Shown here: piece after piece, positions 8,257 through 62,530 of the stretch
Numbering within the stretch: position 1 is the stretch's first letter
How the letters are laid out: the number at the start of each line of letters is the position of its first letter
Virus record (IMG/VR): IMGVR_UViG_3300014826_000002
Location: 25,182 to 89,181 of that record
From: a virus
Taxonomy: Duplodnaviria > Caudoviricetes
Direction: 5' to 3' (one strand)
Length of the DNA: 64,000 nucleotides
Translations under genes and position numbers: made by a program
Notes under the pieces: generated by a model
What the model was told of the DNA's origin: nothing
The model's input: the letters and a program-made list of their open reading frames with translations, nothing else
The model's database searches: none

Positions 8257-10249
8257 ATTCCTTTTCTCCGTTATTTACAGATGCCGCTTTTTCAACTTCA
8301 TCTGACTCATAGAACACACGTCTATCGAATTCATAATCTCTTCGGACTGGATTAAATGCCGACTTAGGAGTAATAAATCCTACAACGCGGCACCATGTTT
8401 CAACGATTGGTTCACCACATATAGGGCACTTACTATTCTTTCCTATCGTATAGTGTTTCTTTGCACATTCGCTGTAAGCATAGTTTATTCCAAAATACTT
8501 AACTTTGCAATCTTTAGCTAAGTCTATGATTTTTTCATACTGCTCAGGGGTCAATGGTTTCTCTCCATCAACATTACAGTGTAATATATTTCCACCTGAA
8601 GTTAATTGGTCAAGCTGCCCCTGAACTTTAAATCTTTCATAAACGGGGCATTCTTCCATAAGGTCAATGTACTGATTTGAATATATTTTATACTTGTTAT
8701 TATAGCCTAAAACACGATCTGATTGTGCCAAACGGACAGCTACTGACTCTGCTGGAATTGCTTCTAAGTTATAAATACAAGATTCGTCAGCTTCCGCCGC
8801 TTGCCATTCCTCTATTTTCGTTTCAATTGTTTTTAAAACTTGGTACAAGCAATCAATACCTTCTTGCGTTTTAATATCTAATCCTTTATTAGCTACGTAT
8901 TGATTACAAGCAGTAATACCAATTGTAGAATACTGTCTATTAATGGAAATCCATTCAGACGTGTAAAGGGGCATAACTCCCCTGGATATTTTCTCCTTAA
9001 GGAGTTTTCTATGTGCATACAAGATTTTATGAAGCATTTCTATATCTTCTTCAAGTAACGAGGGGTTATCTTTTTCCAATAAAGAAATTCTAGCTAAGTT
9101 TAAACCAGCAACACGGTGAGAGCCTAAACTTAAACCACCTACACCAAATGAATTTTGAAATCCGAGGCCACCTGCTTTCTTAATATTATTCGATAAGCGA
9201 CAGCAAGAACTATAAATGTCAGGTTCTCCGATAAATACATTAGAGAATGACTTTTGACAGTTATACTTACTTATCCATTTTTTAAAATCAGGGTCAATAT
9301 AATTTCCTTCAGGGTCTAAGGACAGTGAAAGCGTCATTACAGGGAATGTAAACATGCCTTCTTTACCATTAATTTCATTGAAGTACTCAAAGAACAACTT
9401 AGATAATTCTTGTGAAGAATCCAAGTCAGCTAAGGTACCATCAGGAAGCCAATAGTCTCCAAATAAAGATTTCATATATCCTTTATCCATGACTGACAAA
9501 TTAGTAAAAGCTGATTGACAACTTCTAAATGGGAAATTGAAAGAGTAAATGAGGTTTTGGAATTGGTCTAATATTTTCTTTTTAGCTACATCATCTTCGC
9601 CATTTCTTACTCTTTTCATATAGTCTTGACCATGCTCGTTTCGTAAAAACCAGTCCCAAGCAACAAAGCAGTCTGGGTATGAACAAGCTCCCATAATCTG
9701 ATTTGAAATAAAGGCTGTTGATTGAATTAACAACGCAACAAAGCTATCGCTTCTTTTAGGAGCATGTATTTTCATGCCGCCATTAAAGAAGCTCATCCCT
9801 TCCATTAACAACATTCTTAGGTCAAAAGCATAACAGTAAGAAGTGCTAAAGTTACTGAAATCGTTTATAAACAATTCACCATTCAAAACTTTCTCTACGG
9901 CTATCTTGGCATATTTAACTCCCCACACTTTCTTGACCCATTTGAATAATTGGTAGAAAGAATTTAACCTTTGCAAACCTTTTGGATATTCTTGTATATA
10001 TTGGGCTATAGACTTTTCTTTGACATTAGCATTAGCATCTACCGAAACAGACGCTACAGAGGCAGACTTTCTAAAAAAGTTTTTACTGAATTTACTAATA
10101 TCGAAATTGTCATTATGAACTCCCTGTATTTTAAATAATTCCTCAGGGTATTTTTCTTGTAATCCTTCCCAAAAATTAACAAATTCGTTAGTGTAATCTA
10201 GATGAACATTAAATCCTTTCCTTTTTTGTGTACTTTGTTCGTTTTCCAT
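8243..10249 (-). CDS. nrdD: Class III anaerobic ribonucleoside-triphosphate reductase
   Basis: YCYAFD, SCCRL, EAIPAE, TSGG, C-terminal CPICG and RVVGFI glycyl-radical loop. Confidence 0.95.
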   Translation of the reverse strand: MENEQSTQKRKGFNVHLDYTNEFVNFWEGLQEKYPEELFKIQGVHNDNFDISKFSKNFFRKSASVASVSVDANANVKEKSIAQYIQEYPKGLQRLNSFYQLFKWVKKVWGVKYAKIAVEKVLNGELFINDFSNFSTSYCYAFDLRMLLMEGMSFFNGGMKIHAPKRSDSFVALLIQSTAFISNQIMGACSYPDCFVAWDWFLRNEHGQDYMKRVRNGEDDVAKKKILDQFQNLIYSFNFPFRSCQSAFTNLSVMDKGYMKSLFGDYWLPDGTLADLDSSQELSKLFFEYFNEINGKEGMFTFPVMTLSLSLDPEGNYIDPDFKKWISKYNCQKSFSNVFIGEPDIYSSCCRLSNNIKKAGGLGFQNSFGVGGLSLGSHRVAGLNLARISLLEKDNPSLLEEDIEMLHKILYAHRKLLKEKISRGVMPLYTSEWISINRQYSTIGITACNQYVANKGLDIKTQEGIDCLYQVLKTIETKIEEWQAAEADESCIYNLEAIPAESVAVRLAQSDRVLGYNNKYKIYSNQYIDLMEECPVYERFKVQGQLDQLTSGGNILHCNVDGEKPLTPEQYEKIIDLAKDCKVKYFGINYAYSECAKKHYTIGKNSKCPICGEPIVETWCRVVGFITPKSAFNPVRRDYEFDRRVFYESDEVEKAASVNNGEKEYANC

Positions 10250-12176: not shown

Positions 12177-12749
12177 TTAATCAAACACGTTAAAATCTTT
12201 ACTTATATTTCCTTGCCCGTTTACTATACCTTTACATATCTCTTCTTTTGTTTTGCTGTTTATTACCCCTGAAAGGTTTACAACTACAAGTTCCCCGGAA
12301 TTTTCTAACAATGGAGCTCTTGTTTCACTTAAGATAATCGTAGTTAATCCGTCTCTATTTCTGTCAGCTACTTTATTTAGAGTTGTTTCCATAAGCCAAG
12401 TTTCTGAATTTCCTAAACTCCACATGTGCTTATGGAGGTATAAGAACAGCAGGTCTTGGTCAACGTTTAAACCGTATTCATCTTTAACTCCCGAAGAAAG
12501 TTCACGAGCGTACTCATACATAGAGCAGGAAGTATAAAGAGGACGTTTCTTTAAGCATCGTGTTAAGTAAAAGGCTTTAAATTTACTGAGGATTTCTTGA
12601 TTACCTAACAAAAAATAAGACTTTGAAAGGTCAATGTCAACTTTTTGAAATAAGGCAAGTTCTGCTTTGGTTGTTTTCTTTACAAACTCCCAATTCTCTT
12701 TTCCTAAATATCTTCTTGTAAATTTAAAAAGTTCTAAGTCTTTACTCAT
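12177..12749 (-). CDS. Degenerate DnaC/IstB-like helicase-loader candidate
   Basis: DLLFLYL...TLNKVADRNRDGLTTIILSE resembles the DnaC C-terminal half; no GKT Walker A; directly upstream of dnaB. Confidence 0.45.
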   Translation of the reverse strand: MSKDLELFKFTRRYLGKENWEFVKKTTKAELALFQKVDIDLSKSYFLLGNQEILSKFKAFYLTRCLKKRPLYTSCSMYEYARELSSGVKDEYGLNVDQDLLFLYLHKHMWSLGNSETWLMETTLNKVADRNRDGLTTIILSETRAPLLENSGELVVVNLSGVINSKTKEEICKGIVNGQGNISKDFNVFD

Positions 12750-12797
12750 ATCTTGTTCTCTCTTCTTTATTAATTTTACATTAAAAAATTAATTCTG

Positions 12798-13199
12798 TCA
12801 AATAGACTTTTTCGACTTATATTGATTAACTAAAAATTCATAAAATTCTTCTAAAGAATCAACTGGGTAGACTTTGTTATTTATTGTGATAGTTTTAGGC
12901 TCATTATCCGACATGCTATTGTAAAACCATGCTTCTATATCGTTCTCAATTCTTTTATACTTGTTTCCATCCCACCAGTTAAAGTCTGCTTCTTCATCAA
13001 AAGAGTACCAGCACTCAAATTCATCAGCAAGCATGTTCATTAAAACTGTTTCTAAGTCAGAACCAACTGTAAACAAGCACCAAGAATCTTCCGTTAATTC
13101 TTTTTCAAAGAAATCTGAAATTCTATCTCTTTTAGCTTGGAATTCTATAAGAATTTTCATAATATAGCTAAACTTTTCAAAACTTATTAAATCTTTCAT
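12798..13199 (-). CDS. Hypothetical protein
   Basis: 133-aa ORF in operon context. Confidence 0.7.
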   Translation of the reverse strand: MKDLISFEKFSYIMKILIEFQAKRDRISDFFEKELTEDSWCLFTVGSDLETVLMNMLADEFECWYSFDEEADFNWWDGNKYKRIENDIEAWFYNSMSDNEPKTITINNKVYPVDSLEEFYEFLVNQYKSKKSI

Positions 13200-56452: not shown

Positions 56453-57019
56453 TTACGCTTTCTTTGTTGATTTCTTTACTGACTTCTTAGCCGTTGATTT
56501 CTTAGTTGCTTTCTTAGCTGTTGACTTCTTAGCCGTTGATTTCTTAGCTACAGGTTTCTTAGGTTCTGTATCTGTGTCGGTATCAGTGTCTGCGTCTGTA
56601 TCTGTGTCTGTGTCGGTATCTGTATCAGTATCTGTGTCTGTATCAGTATCTGTGTCTGTGTCGGTATCAGTGTCTGCGTCAGCATTCTTAGTACCTATTT
56701 CATCTTCGATTTGAGCTAACATGTCATCAATAAAGTTCTCATTATCTAATTCAACTTTATTTACTTCTTCTACAGGAGCTGCTTCCTCAAAAGCTTTCTT
56801 TGTAACTTCGATATTCTTCTTAATGCTTGGTTTAGTCTTAGCTATTTCTTCAACTAATTCTTGAGAAATAATGTCAATTCTTTGACCATAGCAATCCCTA
56901 AGTTCTTTCGCAGATACCTTGGTCTCATCTACGTAAGACACTGTTTCAGCTTTAAGAACAACCAGCGTAGCTCCCTTTCTATACTTAAAATCTACTTTTT
57001 CCTTGTTTCTTACAAACAT
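56453..57019 (-). CDS. Protein with (Asp-Thr)n repeat and histone-like AKKST tail
   Basis: 19 D-[T/A] dipeptides followed by KKPVAKKSTAKKSTAKKATKKSTAKK. Confidence 0.8.
   Translation of the reverse strand: MFVRNKEKVDFKYRKGATLVVLKAETVSYVDETKVSAKELRDCYGQRIDIISQELVEEIAKTKPSIKKNIEVTKKAFEEAAPVEEVNKVELDNENFIDDMLAQIEDEIGTKNADADTDTDTDTDTDTDTDTDTDTDTDTDTDADTDTDTDTEPKKPVAKKSTAKKSTAKKATKKSTAKKSVKKSTKKA
56567..56680. repeat. Coding hexamer tandem repeat (19 units)
   Basis: Units tgtatc/tgtgtc/ggtatc/agtatc/agtgtc/tgcgtc; variation is mostly synonymous. Confidence 0.95.
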
Positions 57020-57038: not shown

Positions 57039-57320
57039 TTAGTTATTAATATATTCTTCTAAAGCTTTACTTAATTGAGCGGGACAACTAGTAGGCTTAG
57101 CTCCACACTTAACATCCTGAAGCATATTCTTAACACTTTCTACGCTTCTTCCCTCAATAGCTAAAGATAAACCTACAGCATTTCCCGGACAGCCTCCCAT
57201 AAATATAACTTTCTTAATTAAGTTATCTTTCTTATCAGATCCATCTTCTTCTGAAATAATAACCTTAATATACTTACTACATACGCCTTCTGGCTTATAC
57301 ATAATCTCTTTCTCTTGCAT
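57039..57320 (-). CDS. TIGR03905-like TSCPD domain protein
   Basis: P.GVCS...F.GGCPGN...L...EG...V.CG.KPTSCPAQLSKAL. Confidence 0.88.
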   Translation of the reverse strand: MQEKEIMYKPEGVCSKYIKVIISEEDGSDKKDNLIKKVIFMGGCPGNAVGLSLAIEGRSVESVKNMLQDVKCGAKPTSCPAQLSKALEEYINN

Positions 57321-57347: not shown

Positions 57348-58511
57348 CTAATTCTTACTATTCTTTAAAAGTCTCTTCATATTATCAAGATATATAGCTT
57401 TCTCGTTTCCTATATTTCCTAATCTAAACTTATAATAATCAGCATTAAATAACAAATCTCTATGTATTAAATAACCAAATACTACAAAGTTCAAAGCCTT
57501 TAACTTCATGTCTTCATTCATCTGACATGTATCCCTAAAAGGACTATCTCCGAATATCTTAGCTTCTCTTCCAAGTAATATGGCTTCTAATCCTACAGAT
57601 GAGTTCAAACAATATATCTTATTACACTTATTAATAAAATCCTGAGCGTTCCCTTTAGTTATATCATCTATAACTAATCTGCTATCTATAGGTTTCATTA
57701 TATATCCAGCTGCTGGATGAGGTCTAACAAGCACCTTACCTGTAGAATCTGCTTCAGCTCCTAATATAGGGTCTACCCAATGCCTACCCTCATTAAATAG
57801 TAACAGGTTGGTATCTACTTCTACTTGTAGCCCTACTCCTATCTCGTATTCCCTATTCTTATTATCCAGAATCTTATATAATTTCTGCCAATAATTAGGG
57901 GATAGGACTCTTATAAGCTCCTTACGAGTTAAAATAGGAACTTCATCTGCTATGTTTAAAAATCTCTCAAACCTTCGGTTAAACTCAGTATTGCCATTAA
58001 CACCTTGAAAATCCAAGTATATTGTAGGTATATAAACAGTAGGTCTAAAAGGTCCCATCTCATGGTGGAAAGTCTTCAATCCGAATTCAGCAAGTGTATC
58101 TCTAAAGCACTCATTATTAACCCAAGTAACACCAGCTTCTATCTTTCTACTCTTTATAACTTCCTCTATAGTGGATTTCAGTTCAGGTATATGTCGTTCT
58201 ACAGTTTCCCTAAGCAGCTCTGAAGGTACTAAGTCGTGACCATCATATGCTTCCTTTAAGTATACTTCAGGTTTCTCTACCAAGGTGTAATTATCAGGTT
58301 TCAGCCTGCTTATTACATCTGTATATTTACCCCAATGGTTCTCTACCCACTTAACTTCCCATCTTTCTCCGATATTATACTTCTGTAAGTAATCCTTATT
58401 CAGAATAAAATGAGCATCTAAGTTCTTACCTAATACTTCATACATAACGCTTAAGTACTGAGCTTTACATTGCCTTATATTATAATGATTCAAATAAACT
58501 AAAAAAGTCAT
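57348..58511 (-). CDS. KpsS/KpsC/WbbB-like (GT107/GT99) beta-Kdo-transferase family glycosyltransferase
   Basis: LQVEVDTN (QxxxD), VRPHP (HP), NSSVGLEAILLG. Confidence 0.78.
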   Translation of the reverse strand: MTFLVYLNHYNIRQCKAQYLSVMYEVLGKNLDAHFILNKDYLQKYNIGERWEVKWVENHWGKYTDVISRLKPDNYTLVEKPEVYLKEAYDGHDLVPSELLRETVERHIPELKSTIEEVIKSRKIEAGVTWVNNECFRDTLAEFGLKTFHHEMGPFRPTVYIPTIYLDFQGVNGNTEFNRRFERFLNIADEVPILTRKELIRVLSPNYWQKLYKILDNKNREYEIGVGLQVEVDTNLLLFNEGRHWVDPILGAEADSTGKVLVRPHPAAGYIMKPIDSRLVIDDITKGNAQDFINKCNKIYCLNSSVGLEAILLGREAKIFGDSPFRDTCQMNEDMKLKALNFVVFGYLIHRDLLFNADYYKFRLGNIGNEKAIYLDNMKRLLKNSKN

Positions 58512-60238
58512 TTCAATATATCCTCTCCCAAGGACTTCATCTTAGGGTCATTATTCATGAGCACTTTAAAAGCTGTCTTCCAGTAGCTTCTAAAATAACA
58601 TTCCCTTATCTTCCCTTGTCTTATATAATCCTTATTATACCAAACTACACTTTCATTATTCTCATAAGAACCATTCTCAAAAAGTTCTGAATTACCAAAT
58701 TCAGCTTCTTCCAGTGTAGGTGTATCTAAGAATCTATTAAGCACTTCTATACAATCATTATAAGGTATCTCTATACCTTCGTTTAGAATATCTCGTGCTC
58801 CTTTAAGAACTCCCCTAATTAATTCTTTGGTTATGTCTTTACGATACTTGGTATCTCTATTCAGAATAGGTTTTCCTTCTTCATTGTAAGTAACTACAGT
58901 TCCATTAGGTTCTGAGAATATAACTTCTACAATCCCTGTGTATGCTCTTAATGAACCTTTAGGTAAATAAGACGTTTTCTCTTCTTGTACTCCTTGAAAG
59001 TAATTTCTAGAATCAAAGGTATGTATATACCTTCCCTTAAGCTTAATTCCTGTAATATTTCTGATTATACTCTGCATTGAACCAAAATGACCTAAGTCCA
59101 CAAATATATCCCCATCTTTCATTCCTAAAGATGTGATATATTTCTTAAAGTTCTTTCTGGCAGCTCTCGCCTTCTCATATAAGTCACTCTGTATTAAAGT
59201 AACAAATTGCTGAACAATACTATTCTTATTTGACTTAAAATTCAGGGGAGAATCTATTCTAATTCCAATCTTCTGCAGCTCATTAGAATAGTCTCCTTTC
59301 AAATCAAACATATCTATAAAATCCTTTATAGTCTCTAATCTCAATGTCTTAAAGAAATTCATAGCTTTAATATTATAAGAGCTATCTATCTTCTGATTTA
59401 CATTAATATTAGGGAAGTGACATGACTTACGGCTAAACCTACAGTACTTAATTCTCTTATTGAACTTAATAAGCCACCTAGCTATCAAGTACATAGGAAA
59501 ACAATCACGTGCATTAAAAAATATGATTTGATTATCCGCAGCCTCGTCGAGAAGTTTCTTAGTAAAGGCTAATATTAAAGGAGAAAATATATACCCTATC
59601 TTCTTCTCTATAGAATCAGAACTCAACTCCTCATCAATAAGAAGCTTACGTAACTTAACATTCTGTAATAAAGGAGTTCTAACTTCTCTTTTATAAATAG
59701 GAGGTCCTATAAAGCTCGTAGTTTCTATACCAGCTCTAGAAGCTCCTAGAATATCTGCGTGGTAGTTATCCCCTATGTGAGTGTCTATCTTCCTTTGTAA
59801 GATATCTTCTACCTTTTGAAATAACTTTCCGCTTCCCTTAAGCGCTCCTAACTCACAAGATACAAAAACTTGAGGATTCTTATAACCGCAACGTTCAAGC
59901 ATGCTTCTAATTACAGAACTAGGTAAGTACATATCTGATATAAATATAAAGTCACTTTCACCTTTATTATATAAATCTAAGATGTATGGATTGGGTTTAC
60001 AGTTAAGTAGTTCTGCCTTAATTTCTTCTTTAGGATTAAAAGATGGCTTAATTTCCTTATAAATATCTACTAGGTTATAAAATATACTCTTCTTCCTAGC
60101 AGCATCTTGGGCTTGTATTCGACGCGCTTTAAAGTTATTTCCTACTACATCTTCTACTAAATTAAATATATCTGTAGGATTAAAAACTTTCCTAAATATG
60201 GCTGTGTCAAATACATCCAAACTAACTAAGGACTTCAC
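58508..60238 (-). CDS. Bifunctional HAD phosphatase plus phosphoribosyltransferase-like protein (candidate ribofuranosyltransferase)
   Basis: HAD motifs DVFDT, SDMY, K.SG.LF, HIGDN..AD; C-terminal ARDC, SR and a PRPP-loop-like FVDLGHFGSMQ. Confidence 0.72.
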   Translation of the reverse strand: MKSLVSLDVFDTAIFRKVFNPTDIFNLVEDVVGNNFKARRIQAQDAARKKSIFYNLVDIYKEIKPSFNPKEEIKAELLNCKPNPYILDLYNKGESDFIFISDMYLPSSVIRSMLERCGYKNPQVFVSCELGALKGSGKLFQKVEDILQRKIDTHIGDNYHADILGASRAGIETTSFIGPPIYKREVRTPLLQNVKLRKLLIDEELSSDSIEKKIGYIFSPLILAFTKKLLDEAADNQIIFFNARDCFPMYLIARWLIKFNKRIKYCRFSRKSCHFPNINVNQKIDSSYNIKAMNFFKTLRLETIKDFIDMFDLKGDYSNELQKIGIRIDSPLNFKSNKNSIVQQFVTLIQSDLYEKARAARKNFKKYITSLGMKDGDIFVDLGHFGSMQSIIRNITGIKLKGRYIHTFDSRNYFQGVQEEKTSYLPKGSLRAYTGIVEVIFSEPNGTVVTYNEEGKPILNRDTKYRKDITKELIRGVLKGARDILNEGIEIPYNDCIEVLNRFLDTPTLEEAEFGNSELFENGSYENNESVVWYNKDYIRQGKIRECYFRSYWKTAFKVLMNNDPKMKSLGEDILK

Positions 60239-60331
60239 TACTCTCTCCCTAAATTCTATTACTATTACAGAATTTAATAAAACTTATAATATTATTCTAT
60301 CATATATTCTGGAAGTTGTCAAAAATTAAGA

Positions 60332-60526
60332 TTAATCAAAATAATTATATGTAAGACCGTTCTTACTAGCATATCTACTACGTCTTCTAAAATAATCATA
60401 GTTATATATACGACCATTCCAACTAGGTCTGCTAAAATTTGCGTCTCTGTTAGAATCCCTATTCTTAAAAGGAGCTAGAAATACACCTACTACCTTATCT
60501 ACTATTGCTTTTAATAATACTTTCAT
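60332..60526 (-). CDS. Small peptide, copy 2 (64 aa)
   Basis: AAGGAG RBS; TTGACA-N17-TAGAAT at 60573-60601. Confidence 0.75.
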   Translation of the reverse strand: MKVLLKAIVDKVVGVFLAPFKNRDSNRDANFSRPSWNGRIYNYDYFRRRSRYASKNGLTYNYFD

Positions 60527-60610
60527 ATAATAATCTCCTTTATATAAAAATTATACCTTCATTTATAATATTATTCTATCATATATTCTGGAAGTTGTCA
60601 AAAATTAAGA

Positions 60611-60790
60611 TTAATCAAAATAATGATAATGATATGTACGACCATTCTTACCACGAACTGTAACATTACGTCCACTAAAAGTTGTGCCCCTACTAGAATC
60701 CCTATTCTTAAAAGGAGCTAGAAATACACCTACTACCTTATCGGCTATTAACAATCCTAATAAAAGTAATGCTGTTAATAATACTTCCAT
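60611..60790 (-). CDS. Small membrane peptide, copy 1 (59 aa, not in ORF track)
   Basis: MEVLLTALLLLGLLIADKVVGVFLAPFKNRDSSRGTTFSGRNVTVRGKNGRTYHYHYFD; AAGGAG RBS; TTGACA-N18-TATAAT. Confidence 0.8.
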   Translation of the reverse strand: MEVLLTALLLLGLLIADKVVGVFLAPFKNRDSSRGTTFSGRNVTVRGKNGRTYHYHYFD

Positions 60791-60851
60791 ATAATAATCT
60801 CCTTTATATAAAGATTATACCTTATCTAGATATCTAATGTCAAGGTTAAAT

Positions 60852-60884
60852 AAAAAAATAAATCCCTCGAAATGAGGGATTTAT
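60852..60884 (-). terminator. Rho-independent terminator after the major capsid gene
   Basis: ataaatccctc-N5-gagggatttat followed by a U-tract on the minus strand. Confidence 0.85.
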
Positions 60885-60910
60885 TCTTATATGAAAATGG
60901 CTTCCACCTA

Positions 60911-62530
60911 TTATTCACCAAGTACAGCATCGATGTCTGTAATAGTGTATTTAGCAGCCAATCTTTCAGCAACAACTGTACCTGCAGCAGAAGCAATCAA
61001 TTGTTTTCTGTTAACAGCCAAGTTGTCTTGATCGAAGATGTCTCTGATGATAGGAAGAATGAAAGTACCCCAACAATAAGGAGTTAAGAAGTCTTTATTC
61101 TTAGATTTGTAGATACCTATAACTTCACCAGATGTCAAGATTGGGTCATAACCAACGATAACAGGCATTCCGTCATACAAACCAGCTAGGTACATACCAC
61201 CCATAACTTCTTCAAAGTCAGCATTAGAAGCTGTAAATTTCGGAAGAGCTCTGATGATAGGTAATACGTCAATATTGATAACCAATGCTGACAATCTGTT
61301 ATTACCGATACCTGAAGCTGCTGTGATTAATTTACCTAAGTTACCCATTACAACAGAGATGAACTGAACGTTGAACAAGTCATTGTTTCCACCAGTAACT
61401 TTATCCAATGAATGAGATTTAACTGATTCAGCAGGAATTTTAGCTTTGATTTCAGCAACGATTTTGTTACCAACTTCTTTGTTGTATAATGCAGCCAAAG
61501 CTTCATCTACTTGAGAGTTCCAATCTAAACCAAAGATTGCTTTAGAAAGTGCTTCTTGGTAGATAGAAGTTTCAGTGAATACTGAGAAATCTTCTGCTTC
61601 AAGTTGTTTAGATTCCAAAGAAACTTGAGCACGAGCCATGTTAGCTTTTCCGCCTTCGATAGTTTCAATGTCTCTAGCATATGTAGCATAGATTTTATTA
61701 CCTGATTGAGCTGAAGCTTCAGCCAATTCAATTGTGATTTCACCAGTTTTAAGGTTAGCTGTAGCTTTACCCAAATCTCCACCGATAGAGTAAAGAGCAA
61801 CTACTTCAGGATTACCTTCTTGAGCGAAATCTTTGAAGTATCCTTCCATACCTTCAACATTGATAACCAAAGAACCAGCTTGGATTGGGTGATATTGTAA
61901 TGTGTAAGTGAATGATGTTTCACCAGAACCCATTGTAGCTACTTCTTCTTTTTCAATATTTTTAGTACCAACGAAATCAAGAGGTTGTTTACTCATTTCT
62001 TTCGGAGAACCTAACAAGTCGCCAGCTTCAATATTACCTTTTGCATTTTCAGCATTGATTTTTTGGTAATAAACTAAACCACGGTTTCCTTTAAGGTCGA
62101 ATTGGTGACACAAATAAGGAAGAACTGCTTTTTCGTATTGATAAGTTGTCAAAGCAATTGATGGAACTGGGTAAGGAGCTTGAGCTGTTGTAGCTGGGTT
62201 AAGAGCTTCTGAAATAGCCCAGAAGTTATTTTCACCAGAAATTTCTCTACCAATTGATTCGTCCAATTTAACAGCTTTAGCGTCTCTTCTGATTGCATTC
62301 GCGTAATCAGCTGAGTTGTAGTTTTCAGAAACCAATGAAACTGCTTCCATTAATTCTGAGAATGAGAAACCAGATACTTTGTTATAGTCAGTATCTAAAA
62401 GTCTTTCAACGATAGGAGCAAATTTGTCCAAGTCGCTGAAGCGAGCGTTATGATAGTGTAATCTATCTCCGCCGTTTGATCTAAGTAAAAATTCTTTTTT
62501 TACTTGTTCTAAGTTGTTGAATTTTGCCAT
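60911..62530 (-). CDS. Major capsid protein (T4 gp23-like)
   Basis: 539 aa between scaffold and terminator; distinct highly-expressed codon usage; long N-terminal propeptide-like region; gp23-like YAGLYDG/IVGY/PY region. Confidence 0.85.
   Translation of the reverse strand: MAKFNNLEQVKKEFLLRSNGGDRLHYHNARFSDLDKFAPIVERLLDTDYNKVSGFSFSELMEAVSLVSENYNSADYANAIRRDAKAVKLDESIGREISGENNFWAISEALNPATTAQAPYPVPSIALTTYQYEKAVLPYLCHQFDLKGNRGLVYYQKINAENAKGNIEAGDLLGSPKEMSKQPLDFVGTKNIEKEEVATMGSGETSFTYTLQYHPIQAGSLVINVEGMEGYFKDFAQEGNPEVVALYSIGGDLGKATANLKTGEITIELAEASAQSGNKIYATYARDIETIEGGKANMARAQVSLESKQLEAEDFSVFTETSIYQEALSKAIFGLDWNSQVDEALAALYNKEVGNKIVAEIKAKIPAESVKSHSLDKVTGGNNDLFNVQFISVVMGNLGKLITAASGIGNNRLSALVINIDVLPIIRALPKFTASNADFEEVMGGMYLAGLYDGMPVIVGYDPILTSGEVIGIYKSKNKDFLTPYCWGTFILPIIRDIFDQDNLAVNRKQLIASAAGTVVAERLAAKYTITDIDAVLGE

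Follow-up and report, generated by a model that had tools for sequence, protein, structure and literature searches.

The DNA analysed here (the window, 64,000 nucleotides) is the final 64 kb of an 89,181-bp IMG/VR record of Caudoviricetes (IMGVR_UViG_3300014826_000002; CheckV completeness 46%). It belongs to a large, uncultured gut or rumen phage whose relatives, of about 190 kb, come from ruminant or gut samples. Our subject is a pair of minus-strand genes, gene A (58508-60238, 576 amino acids (aa), GTG start codon) and gene B (57348-58511, 387 aa), both read from the list of open reading frames (ORFs) and their translations. Together they may constitute a mobile two-enzyme module for glycan extension, drawn from the capsule and O-antigen assembly lines of bacteria that use ATP-binding cassette (ABC) transporters. 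The genes meet at AAA TGA / ATG ACT, a 4-nt ATGA overlap that a preliminary description of this DNA had pointed out and that the ORFs confirm, and from this junction they appear to be translationally coupled. An alternative database call starts gene B at an internal Met and yields 365 aa. We take the start within the overlap to be correct because the alignment of gene B with the bacterial enzyme WbbB begins at residue 3 of the 387-aa frame.

Predicted chemistry of the two proteins

[quoted passage not shown] Profile, fold model and catalytic residues indicate that gene A is very probably a ribofuranosyltransferase of the CrpP-CriT (PRP-gPRT) type. The N-terminal domain (approximately aa 1-190; 59669..60238, minus strand) is predicted to be a HAD phosphatase of CrpP/PRP type. 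The C-terminal domain (approximately aa 191-576; 58508..59668, minus strand) is predicted to be a glycan phosphoribosyltransferase of CriT/gPRT type that depends on phosphoribosyl pyrophosphate (PRPP). Single-sequence searches of NCBIfam and Pfam gave a weak HAD signal only. A profile of 26 homologues, compared with PDB sequences, matched Bcs3 of Haemophilus influenzae type b over Bcs3 residues 381-889 (E 5.7e-22). The CrpP phosphatase of Bcs3 occupies residues 374-591 and is followed by the CriT ribose-5-phosphate transferase at 592-1036 (PMC10299916); since the profile spans first CrpP and then CriT residues, the domain order of gene A is that of Bcs3.

Equivalent residues were read off by counting along the printed alignment. 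Asp8 of gene A pairs with CrpP Asp386, the nucleophile at the end of strand 1, and Lys134 with Lys548 of HAD motif III. The catalytic acids CriT Asp680 and Glu818 correspond to Asp245 and Asp381, the latter a conservative Asp-for-Glu change. All four residues are invariant in the 26 homologues, as are the further predicted HAD catalytic residues Ser101 and Asp157/Asp162. A motif I in which only the first Asp is kept is a CrpP trait (PMC10299916), and it recurs in gene A (LDVFDT, compared to FDIFDT in Bcs3). The motifs listed in the preliminary description (DVFDT, SDMY, GDNYHAD, ARDC, SR and VDLGHFGSMQ) are all found in the translation.

The AlphaFold2 model of gene A (mean pLDDT 92.6, pTM 0.90) provides the fold check that had been proposed for the C-terminal domain. 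Foldseek matched it to 8a0m (Bcs3; TM 0.73, E 7.4e-20) and to the polysaccharide ribofuranosyltransferase of Thermobacillus composti (7shg; E 1.7e-18), and after these two returned generic HAD enzymes only. An exhaustive HMMER search recovered 6,337 representative clusters at E<=1e-3, most of them approximately 600-650 aa and aligned end to end, which places gene A in a large PRP-gPRT family. Gene A has the HAD phosphatase residues, the acidic residues typical of phosphoribosyltransferases (PRT) and the two-domain fold that characterize this family. It differs from Bcs3 (8a0c/8a0m) in being phage-encoded and in lacking the CroT ribitol-phosphate transferase, the SH3b domain and the C-terminal amphipathic helices; structural identity is approximately 18%.

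Gene B (minus strand) is, on Pfam membership, full-length alignment and donor-contact residues, very likely a retaining beta-Kdo-type glycosyltransferase of family GT99. It scores 66.1 bits against PF21912 (GT99 N-terminal; cut-off 27) and also matches PF05159 (Capsule_synth). A phmmer search of PDB sequences aligned residues 3-367 with the GT99 module of WbbB (5fa0, E 7.5e-34), an enzyme of Raoultella terrigena/Klebsiella O12 (5fa0, 8csb-f). We mapped residues by combining the mechanistic study of WbbB, the phmmer alignment and the invariant columns of 26 homologues, with the register pinned by the D232N crystal variant; the roles of the WbbB residues in catalysis and Kdo contact are those given in PMC9587256. 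Accordingly, the nucleophile Asp232 of the QxxxD motif corresponds to D233, the general base Glu158 to E151, and His265-Pro of the HP motif to H265-P266. Among the Kdo contacts, Gln228 corresponds to Q229, Val229 to V230, Arg163 to R156, Asn179 to N172, Arg12 to R13 and Ser233 to T234, a Ser to Thr change. Thus all catalytic and Kdo-contact residues of WbbB are kept in gene B and are invariant across its 26 homologues, as is Asn303-Ser304-Ser305. The motifs QVEVD, HP and NSSVGLEA that had first drawn attention to the gene are present in its translation. Family membership, catalytic set and donor contacts therefore all agree with a GT99 assignment.

The Trp20 acceptor residue of WbbB is Ser in gene B. 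The retention of the Kdo contacts together with this change suggests that the donor is Kdo activated by cytidine monophosphate (CMP-Kdo) and that the acceptor differs from that of WbbB, in other words that it is not Rha-GlcNAc. In addition, gene B is a single module without the coiled coil or the polymerising glycosyltransferase (GT) modules of WbbB, and no wzm/wzt genes lie nearby.

If these assignments hold, gene A would act in two steps. The PRT-like domain would move ribofuranose-5-phosphate from PRPP to a sugar hydroxyl by means of Asp245 and Asp381, and the HAD domain, with Asp8 as nucleophile, would then strip the 5-phosphate to leave beta-ribofuranose (Ribf). Gene B would take Kdo from host-made CMP-beta-Kdo into a covalent intermediate at Asp233 and, with Glu151 as general base, pass it to an acceptor with retained configuration. 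By inference, either each enzyme uses the product of the other or both share one acceptor. What they make together could be a disaccharide of Ribf and Kdo, a cap, or a chain in which the two sugars alternate.

There is bacterial precedent for such chemistry, as the preliminary description had stated. KrkA of Escherichia coli K13 fuses a Kdo transferase to a gPRT-PRP ribosyltransferase and makes a Ribf-Kdo capsule (PMC12887879), and a capsule survey found the KrkA-type three-domain ORF across the K13-K19 set (PMC13171606). In its use of Kdo from CMP-Kdo and Ribf from PRPP, KrkA (K13/K20/K23) is the best functional analogue of the predicted phage pair. However, KrkA is one fused protein with GT140 that makes an alternating Ribf-Kdo polymer, whereas the predicted phage pair comprises two genes, with a GT99 enzyme and no kps export or primer genes. 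A second parallel is offered by Klebsiella pneumoniae O4/O7, where an independent ribofuranosyltransferase (RibfT) polypeptide works with other enzymes. The O4 RibfT stands alone and Kdo caps the terminal Ribf; in contrast to the predicted phage chemistry, O4 relies on an inverting GT137 Kdo transferase and an alpha linkage, and the O4/O7 systems have a dedicated ABC transporter. Among named cellular proteins, those most similar to gene B (32-36% identity) are encoded next to wzm/wzt (Wzt_C) and mannan GT4 genes, which is the locus position of an O-antigen chain terminator.

Gene order and partner exchange in related phages

In the window the pair lies behind the major capsid protein gene (60911..62530, minus strand), which we identified from synteny and from weak tblastn matches to annotated major capsid proteins, such as that of E. 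coli phage IME392 (4e-14). Gene B is followed, after short spacers and with no intervening terminator, by two further minus-strand genes. The first (57039..57320) encodes a TSCPD-domain protein of 93 aa with four Cys (PF12637, 3.4e-19; TIGR03905, 1.5e-20). The second (56453..57019), apparently the final gene of the operon, encodes a 188-aa protein with an 'MFV..' N-terminal domain, a low-complexity (Asp-Thr)n centre and a Lys-rich tail.

Orthologues are numerous in metagenomes, with about 105 clusters (at 90% identity) for gene A at >=48% identity and about 90 for gene B, many of them on contigs of 100-200 kb. A survey of the pair in related phages, which the preliminary description had called for, revealed a recurring order of capsid gene, variable genes, A, B, TSCPD, the 'MFV' low-complexity protein and a conserved 320-aa protein (L005-7, L109, L110, L111). 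In the fetched contigs of relatives of approximately 190 kb, which are independent assemblies, the A-B-TSCPD cassette is kept behind the capsid gene. TSCPD follows GT99 in four of four GT99-bearing relatives (L005, L109, L110 and L111) and is absent from L002, discussed below. The slot between capsid gene and gene A holds a GT2 and an NAD-dependent sugar epimerase/dehydratase in L005-7, a small HAD phosphatase in L111 and two small ORFs in the window. One relative carries a serine recombinase (Resolvase plus MerR-type helix-turn-helix, 200 aa; L110:8791-9393) exactly between the A and B homologues, an insertion that breaks their translational coupling.

Could the genes instead come from a bacterial capsule locus that assembly wrongly joined to phage sequence? 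The preliminary description had named such a host-contaminant chimera as an outcome that would undo it, and both families are indeed typical of bacterial envelope-glycan loci. Counter to this, identical gene order recurs in independent assemblies that include a complete 195-kb genome with terminal repeats (G001), the cassette is flanked by head genes, GC content is uniform across the window (0.33-0.36), and each gene has approximately 100 clusters of phage-type orthologues. The probability of an artefact is negligible, and the synteny in independent contigs effectively refutes it.

The pair evolves faster than the capsid gene. Relative to the window, capsid proteins of the relatives are 82-86% identical (74-86% across the syntenic relatives), compared to 54-60% for A and 54-63% for B. 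It also occurs in quite different settings. A and B are adjacent or <=2 kb apart in three phage lineages. In L112 they are adjacent amid genes for a helicase, thymidine kinase, thioredoxin and serine hydroxymethyltransferase (SHMT). In L014, a gene A homologue lies 2 kb from a GT99 gene, with DnaB nearby. The GT99 homologue of that contig, together with an NPPY-motif methyltransferase-like ORF of 225 aa, separates the N-lobe of a split SNF2 helicase from its C-lobe (L014:7020-10618). Another contig has GT99 alone, adjoining PolA. A lone gene A homologue (37% identity, no partner transferase nearby; L004:1296-3023) was also seen in a replication module with ERF, MazG, a dGTP_diPhyd_N protein, DnaB, MT-A70 and PolA (L004, 8262-13621). 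The pair is thus not tied to the capsid gene, although judging from gene order its members are co-translated and co-inherited. Proximity to the capsid gene, which had been stressed, may carry no meaning: the same pair appears in replication and nucleotide modules of other phages, and in the window it follows a terminator and has promoters of its own.

These replication-module settings raise the possibility that the pair glycosylates a hydroxylated or hydroxymethylated base of phage DNA as a defence against restriction. Arguing for this are the GT99 gene between split SNF2 halves beside the NPPY methyltransferase-like ORF and DnaB, the GT99 gene next to PolA, the A and B genes near thymidine kinase and SHMT, and the lone gene A near MazG, DnaB and PolA. 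Nevertheless, neither the 89-kb record nor the 195-kb relative encodes a ThyA-family hydroxymethylase, known pentosylation of phage DNA uses nucleoside diphosphate (NDP)-arabinose and GT-B enzymes rather than PRPP transferases, and all characterised members of both families have glycan acceptors only. We consider DNA hypermodification highly improbable.

The partner of gene A is not constant. In L002, whose capsid protein is 74% identical to that of the window, B and TSCPD are missing and an unrelated 241-aa protein follows gene A. Sixteen of the 26 members of this partner family match PF01973 (MptE-like, formerly Maf_flag10; best E 9.5e-9), and its language-model neighbours include a cluster with WaaZ_KDO_III members. 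Its profile found no significant match among PDB sequences, and the fold search alone succeeded. The AlphaFold2 model (pLDDT 89.9) resembles the central domain of the Maf protein 5mu5 (Z 13.3) and the Cst-I/II sialyltransferases (Z 11-11.6; Cst-II, 11.6), and thus the Maf_flag10/PF01973/GT42 fold. MptE and thiamin pyrophosphokinases (TPK) match as well, and scores drop sharply below Z 7. Unlike Maf, the 241-aa protein is a minimal domain without the Maf N- and C-terminal domains. Its predicted transferase activity is deduced from genomic context, and the fold also covers the pyrophosphokinases MptE and TPK. An ORF of 197 aa in L112 and one of 154 aa in L014, both located 5' of gene A, were considered as further PF01973-like proteins and rejected (hhalign probability <1%).

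To place these exchanges we used a gene A tree of 49 proteins with an assignable partner, rows lacking one being left out. Partner type was determined by direct inspection in nine contigs and by a heuristic, the pairing of matches on contigs of identical length, for the others. On well-supported branches, the partner changes between GT99 and PF01973 at least four times. Since a transferase of the CMP-ulosonate type is repeatedly replaced by a non-homologous one beside a vertically inherited RibfT, this suggests that the two partners are functionally interchangeable, in which case the constant chemistry would be Ribf plus an ulosonic acid.

Similar pairings exist in bacteria. The phage PF01973 partner has 58-62% identical proteins in two bacterial envelope-glycan loci, each of which pairs a RibfT-like with a PF01973-type gene (L117:3393-6954, L118:1502-8832). 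In a Succinivibrio metagenome-assembled genome (MAG), the partner belongs to a kps-type locus that also encodes a RibfT-like protein of 694 aa, a GT29 fusion and two Capsule_synth proteins. In an Alphaproteobacteria MAG (34.6% GC), the partner adjoins a 588-aa RibfT-like gene within an RmlA/RmlC/RgpF (rhamnan) locus. The occurrence of the same pairings in bacterial loci indicates that the module is native to ABC-transporter-type envelope-glycan assembly.

Described phages offer little comparison. PHROGs has no family for gene A or B, PADLOC returned none, and none of 50,697 phage records matched the 10-kb region by megablast. With tblastn, phage records yielded nothing but a HAD-only fragment, from a human faecal phage, and a single GT99-like gene, which belongs to the cultured Agrobacterium phage Rivra and is unstudied. 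Our literature search found no paper on these enzymes, or on their pair, in phages, in line with the preliminary description, whose author was aware of none.

Transcription of the cassette and its possible acceptor

Directly 3' of the capsid gene lies a terminator-like hairpin with a 15-pair stem followed by a T run (60854..60888, minus strand). Between it and gene A is a putative accessory leader region (60294..60843, minus strand) with three consensus sigma70-type promoters and two paralogous small ORFs. The predicted promoters are at 60843-60814 (12/12 positions), at 60601-60573 (near-consensus) and at 60322-60294, where TTGACA-17-TAGAAT with a TG extension (11/12 positions) directly precedes gene A. 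The last had been reported in the preliminary description; it proves to be one of a cluster of three. The small ORFs, of 59 aa (60611-60790, minus strand) and 64 aa (60332-60526, minus strand), are 70% identical to each other, have the stretch DKVVGVFLAPFKNRDS in common and end in tails rich in Tyr and basic residues. The region is thus a tandem duplication of a unit made of a consensus sigma70 promoter and a small ORF. No homologue of these ORFs was found among the relatives examined.

A putative late promoter element, ATTAAATTCT, which had also been reported, is present as an exact copy at 60269..60278 (minus strand), 31 nt 5' of the gene A start. Allowing <=1 mismatch, the window contains 40 copies of the element compared to 25.8 expected, and 40 was reached in 1 of 100 shuffles. 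Numerous minus-strand copies sit immediately 5' of structural genes, and we therefore regard the enrichment as modest but positional.

We interpret the cassette as an accessory, moron-like element that would be transcribed from its own host-type promoters. From the terminator and promoters, the variable slot between capsid gene and gene A, and the lower conservation of A and B compared to the capsid, we infer an accessory status. The enzymes would act in the cytoplasm of an infected diderm host on a lipid-linked envelope glycan, that is, a capsule, O-antigen or core intermediate. Host transporters would then export the product and so change the cell surface, for example by masking a receptor or by capping chains prematurely. 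We give this full reading a probability of roughly 0.4.

Several considerations lead us to favour an envelope-glycan acceptor. Acceptors of this kind serve every characterised relative; the cassette has the look of an autonomous unit, given the terminator and its own host-type promoters; it occurs in the replication modules of other phages; it evolves fast; and no exporter or protein-priming glycosyltransferase is present. Several points weigh against the proposal. The activity, donor and acceptor of both proteins are predictions, and Asp381 of gene A stands where Bcs3 has Glu818. The availability of CMP-Kdo in the host is deduced from conserved donor contacts alone, and that a probably lytic phage would benefit from surface remodelling is our assumption. 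Moreover, the cassette lies within a block of head genes, with a late-type motif upstream and a hypervariable Thr-rich protein downstream, a setting that fits virion glycosylation equally well, and the alternative partner has the fold of the protein-O-glycosylating Maf enzymes.

In the case of virion glycosylation, a structural protein would receive a Ribf/Kdo glycan from the same enzymes while still in the cytoplasm, ahead of assembly, and the glycan would serve as a shield or adhesion layer. The acceptor might, speculatively, be the acidic Thr-rich-repeat protein downstream, or else the capsid. All examined members of the lineage have the cassette flanked by the capsid gene on one side and by further conserved genes of the head region on the other. 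In the window, the late-type motif is 5' of it. The last protein of the operon has a (DT)n centre in the window and TE-rich repeats in L005 and L109. Among its homologues the N-terminal domain is conserved and the centre is hypervariable, being PT-rich in L110 and not Thr-rich in L002 or L111. In L002 the 'MFV.N..' domain occurs twice, flanking the glycan genes, as a 71-aa ORF upstream of A (9765-9980) and a 184-aa protein downstream (12575-13129). The Maf_flag10/Cst-II-fold partner that some relatives swap in points in the same direction, as Maf enzymes O-glycosylate Ser/Thr with CMP-activated ulosonic acids, Kdo included (PMC11339370). Glycosylation of mycobacteriophage virions by phage glycosyltransferases is also cited in the literature. 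Counter to this, no characterised GT99 or gPRT enzyme has a protein acceptor, and neither the cassette nor the rest of the 89-kb record encodes a protein-priming glycosyltransferase. Thr-richness does not track GT99, as L110 and L111 have GT99 and little Thr repeat. In other phages the pair is far from structural genes, and the sigma70 promoters of the cassette suggest expression independent of the late operon. We view virion glycosylation as a serious possibility but an unlikely one. The same applies to its more specific form, in which the clade of approximately 190-kb phages would use a swappable cassette of RibfT and a GT99 or Maf-fold enzyme to O-glycosylate a hypervariable Thr-rich head-associated protein or the capsid, a proposal that we regard as doubtful. 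If true, PRPP and CMP-Kdo would for the first time be the sources of a virion glycan, and GT99 or gPRT enzymes would for the first time be seen to act on protein.

Phage-borne cytoplasmic glycosyltransferases that draw on host donors are well represented by the modifiers of mycobacteriophage virions and by those with which temperate phages alter O-antigen or teichoic acid. Their enzymes are of GT-A or GT-B type and the donors are NDP-sugars or lipid-linked, and we know of none that uses PRPP or CMP-Kdo.

A and B are themselves ordinary members of known families; what is new is a widespread, swappable phage module of their chemistry. Ribofuranosyltransferases that depend on PRPP, and likewise Kdo transferases of the retaining type, have been defined only of late, and from the synthesis of bacterial capsules and O-antigens alone. 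The locus puts both predicted enzymes in a phage as a coupled, fast-evolving module, in which an unrelated enzyme of sialyltransferase fold has taken the place of the Kdo transferase on at least four occasions. It offers a testable case of phage envelope-glycan chemistry, in which either the surface of the infected cell is rewritten or the phage coats its own particle. Glycoengineering could draw on its natural RibfT and GT99 variants, which are compact, soluble and single-module and would differ in acceptor specificity.

Donor supply and host

The donors, and any means of export, appear to come largely from the host. The 89-kb record lacks PF02348 (KdsB-type cytidylyltransferase), PF00793 (KdsA) and PF13793 (PRPP synthetase), and the complete relative G001 lacks a PF02348 CMP-sugar/CMP-Kdo synthetase. 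G001 has no GT1/4 enzyme, and its only GT2 is that of the cassette. No match to ABC_tran exceeded the cut-off in the record or in G001. The locus does not resemble a group 2/3 (kps-type) capsule system, as it is without a KpsMT exporter or KpsC/KpsS primer enzymes, and the only Capsule_synth match in the scanned window region is gene B. From the absence of a CMP-Kdo synthetase and an exporter in G001, we conclude that CMP-Kdo, PRPP and any export would be largely host-supplied. G001 does encode a PRPP synthetase (325 aa, three Pfam domains; L013, G001:C1:22262-25606), whose gene lies between those for an SPFH/Band 7 protein and a Tad3-like inhibitor of Thoeris. The synthetase may feed the ribofuranosyltransferase or, given its Tad3-like neighbour, may serve NAD-related counter-defence.

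Alternatively, gene B and the PF01973 partner may transfer a different CMP-activated ulosonic acid, such as pseudaminic acid (Pse), legionaminic acid (Leg), N-acetylneuraminic acid (Neu5Ac) or Kdn. In this case the host could be monoderm and the product a Ribf-nonulosonate glycan, for example on teichoic-acid-like polymers. The relatives of retaining Kdo transferases include the Pse transferase KpsS1 (PMC12887879), PRP-gPRT enzymes are found in Gram-positives (T. composti 7shg and Bcs3 homologues), and the Maf-fold partner family usually handles nonulosonic acids. The strong Shine-Dalgarno sites and canonical -35/-10 promoters are also as in Firmicutes phages. However, none of the positions at which WbbB contacts Kdo varies within the phage family, and among them is the Glu158/Asn179 pair, which binds Kdo O8/O4 (PMC9587256). 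The cellular proteins nearest to gene B, and those nearest to the PF01973 partner, are all in envelope-glycan loci of Proteobacteria. No nonulosonate synthesis genes were seen in G001, PF02348 being the sole family searched. We judge a donor other than CMP-Kdo to be quite improbable. The conserved Kdo contacts and the absent CMP-Kdo synthetase predict that the host should be diderm.

Promoter sequences give a further indication. Across the whole window, TTGACA-N17/18-TATAAT sites at 11-12/12 positions number 15 on the minus (coding) strand and 4 on the plus strand (examples are 55389-55361, 45727-45699, 25931-25903, 24075-24047, 19885-19857 and 16313-16285). To judge from these sites, transcription evidently depends on a host polymerase of canonical sigma70 type, which speaks against Bacteroidota as the host. 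When GroEL was compared with 185,579 species genomes, many phyla matched at 49-54% identity, so that no one phylum was favoured; searching the literature for such phages as a host lead found none. With a GC content equal to that of the phage, the Alphaproteobacteria MAG with the RibfT and PF01973 pair offers a weak lead to the host. Upstream of the window, the phage also carries a cluster of tRNAs (for Asn, Asp, Ala, Thr, Glu and Met, plus an odd one) together with a one-piece transfer-messenger RNA (tmRNA) whose tag is ANNVIKADFGYRTALAA (G000:C1:7004-11073), and the same tRNA/tmRNA set is found in G001 at 67-71 kb.

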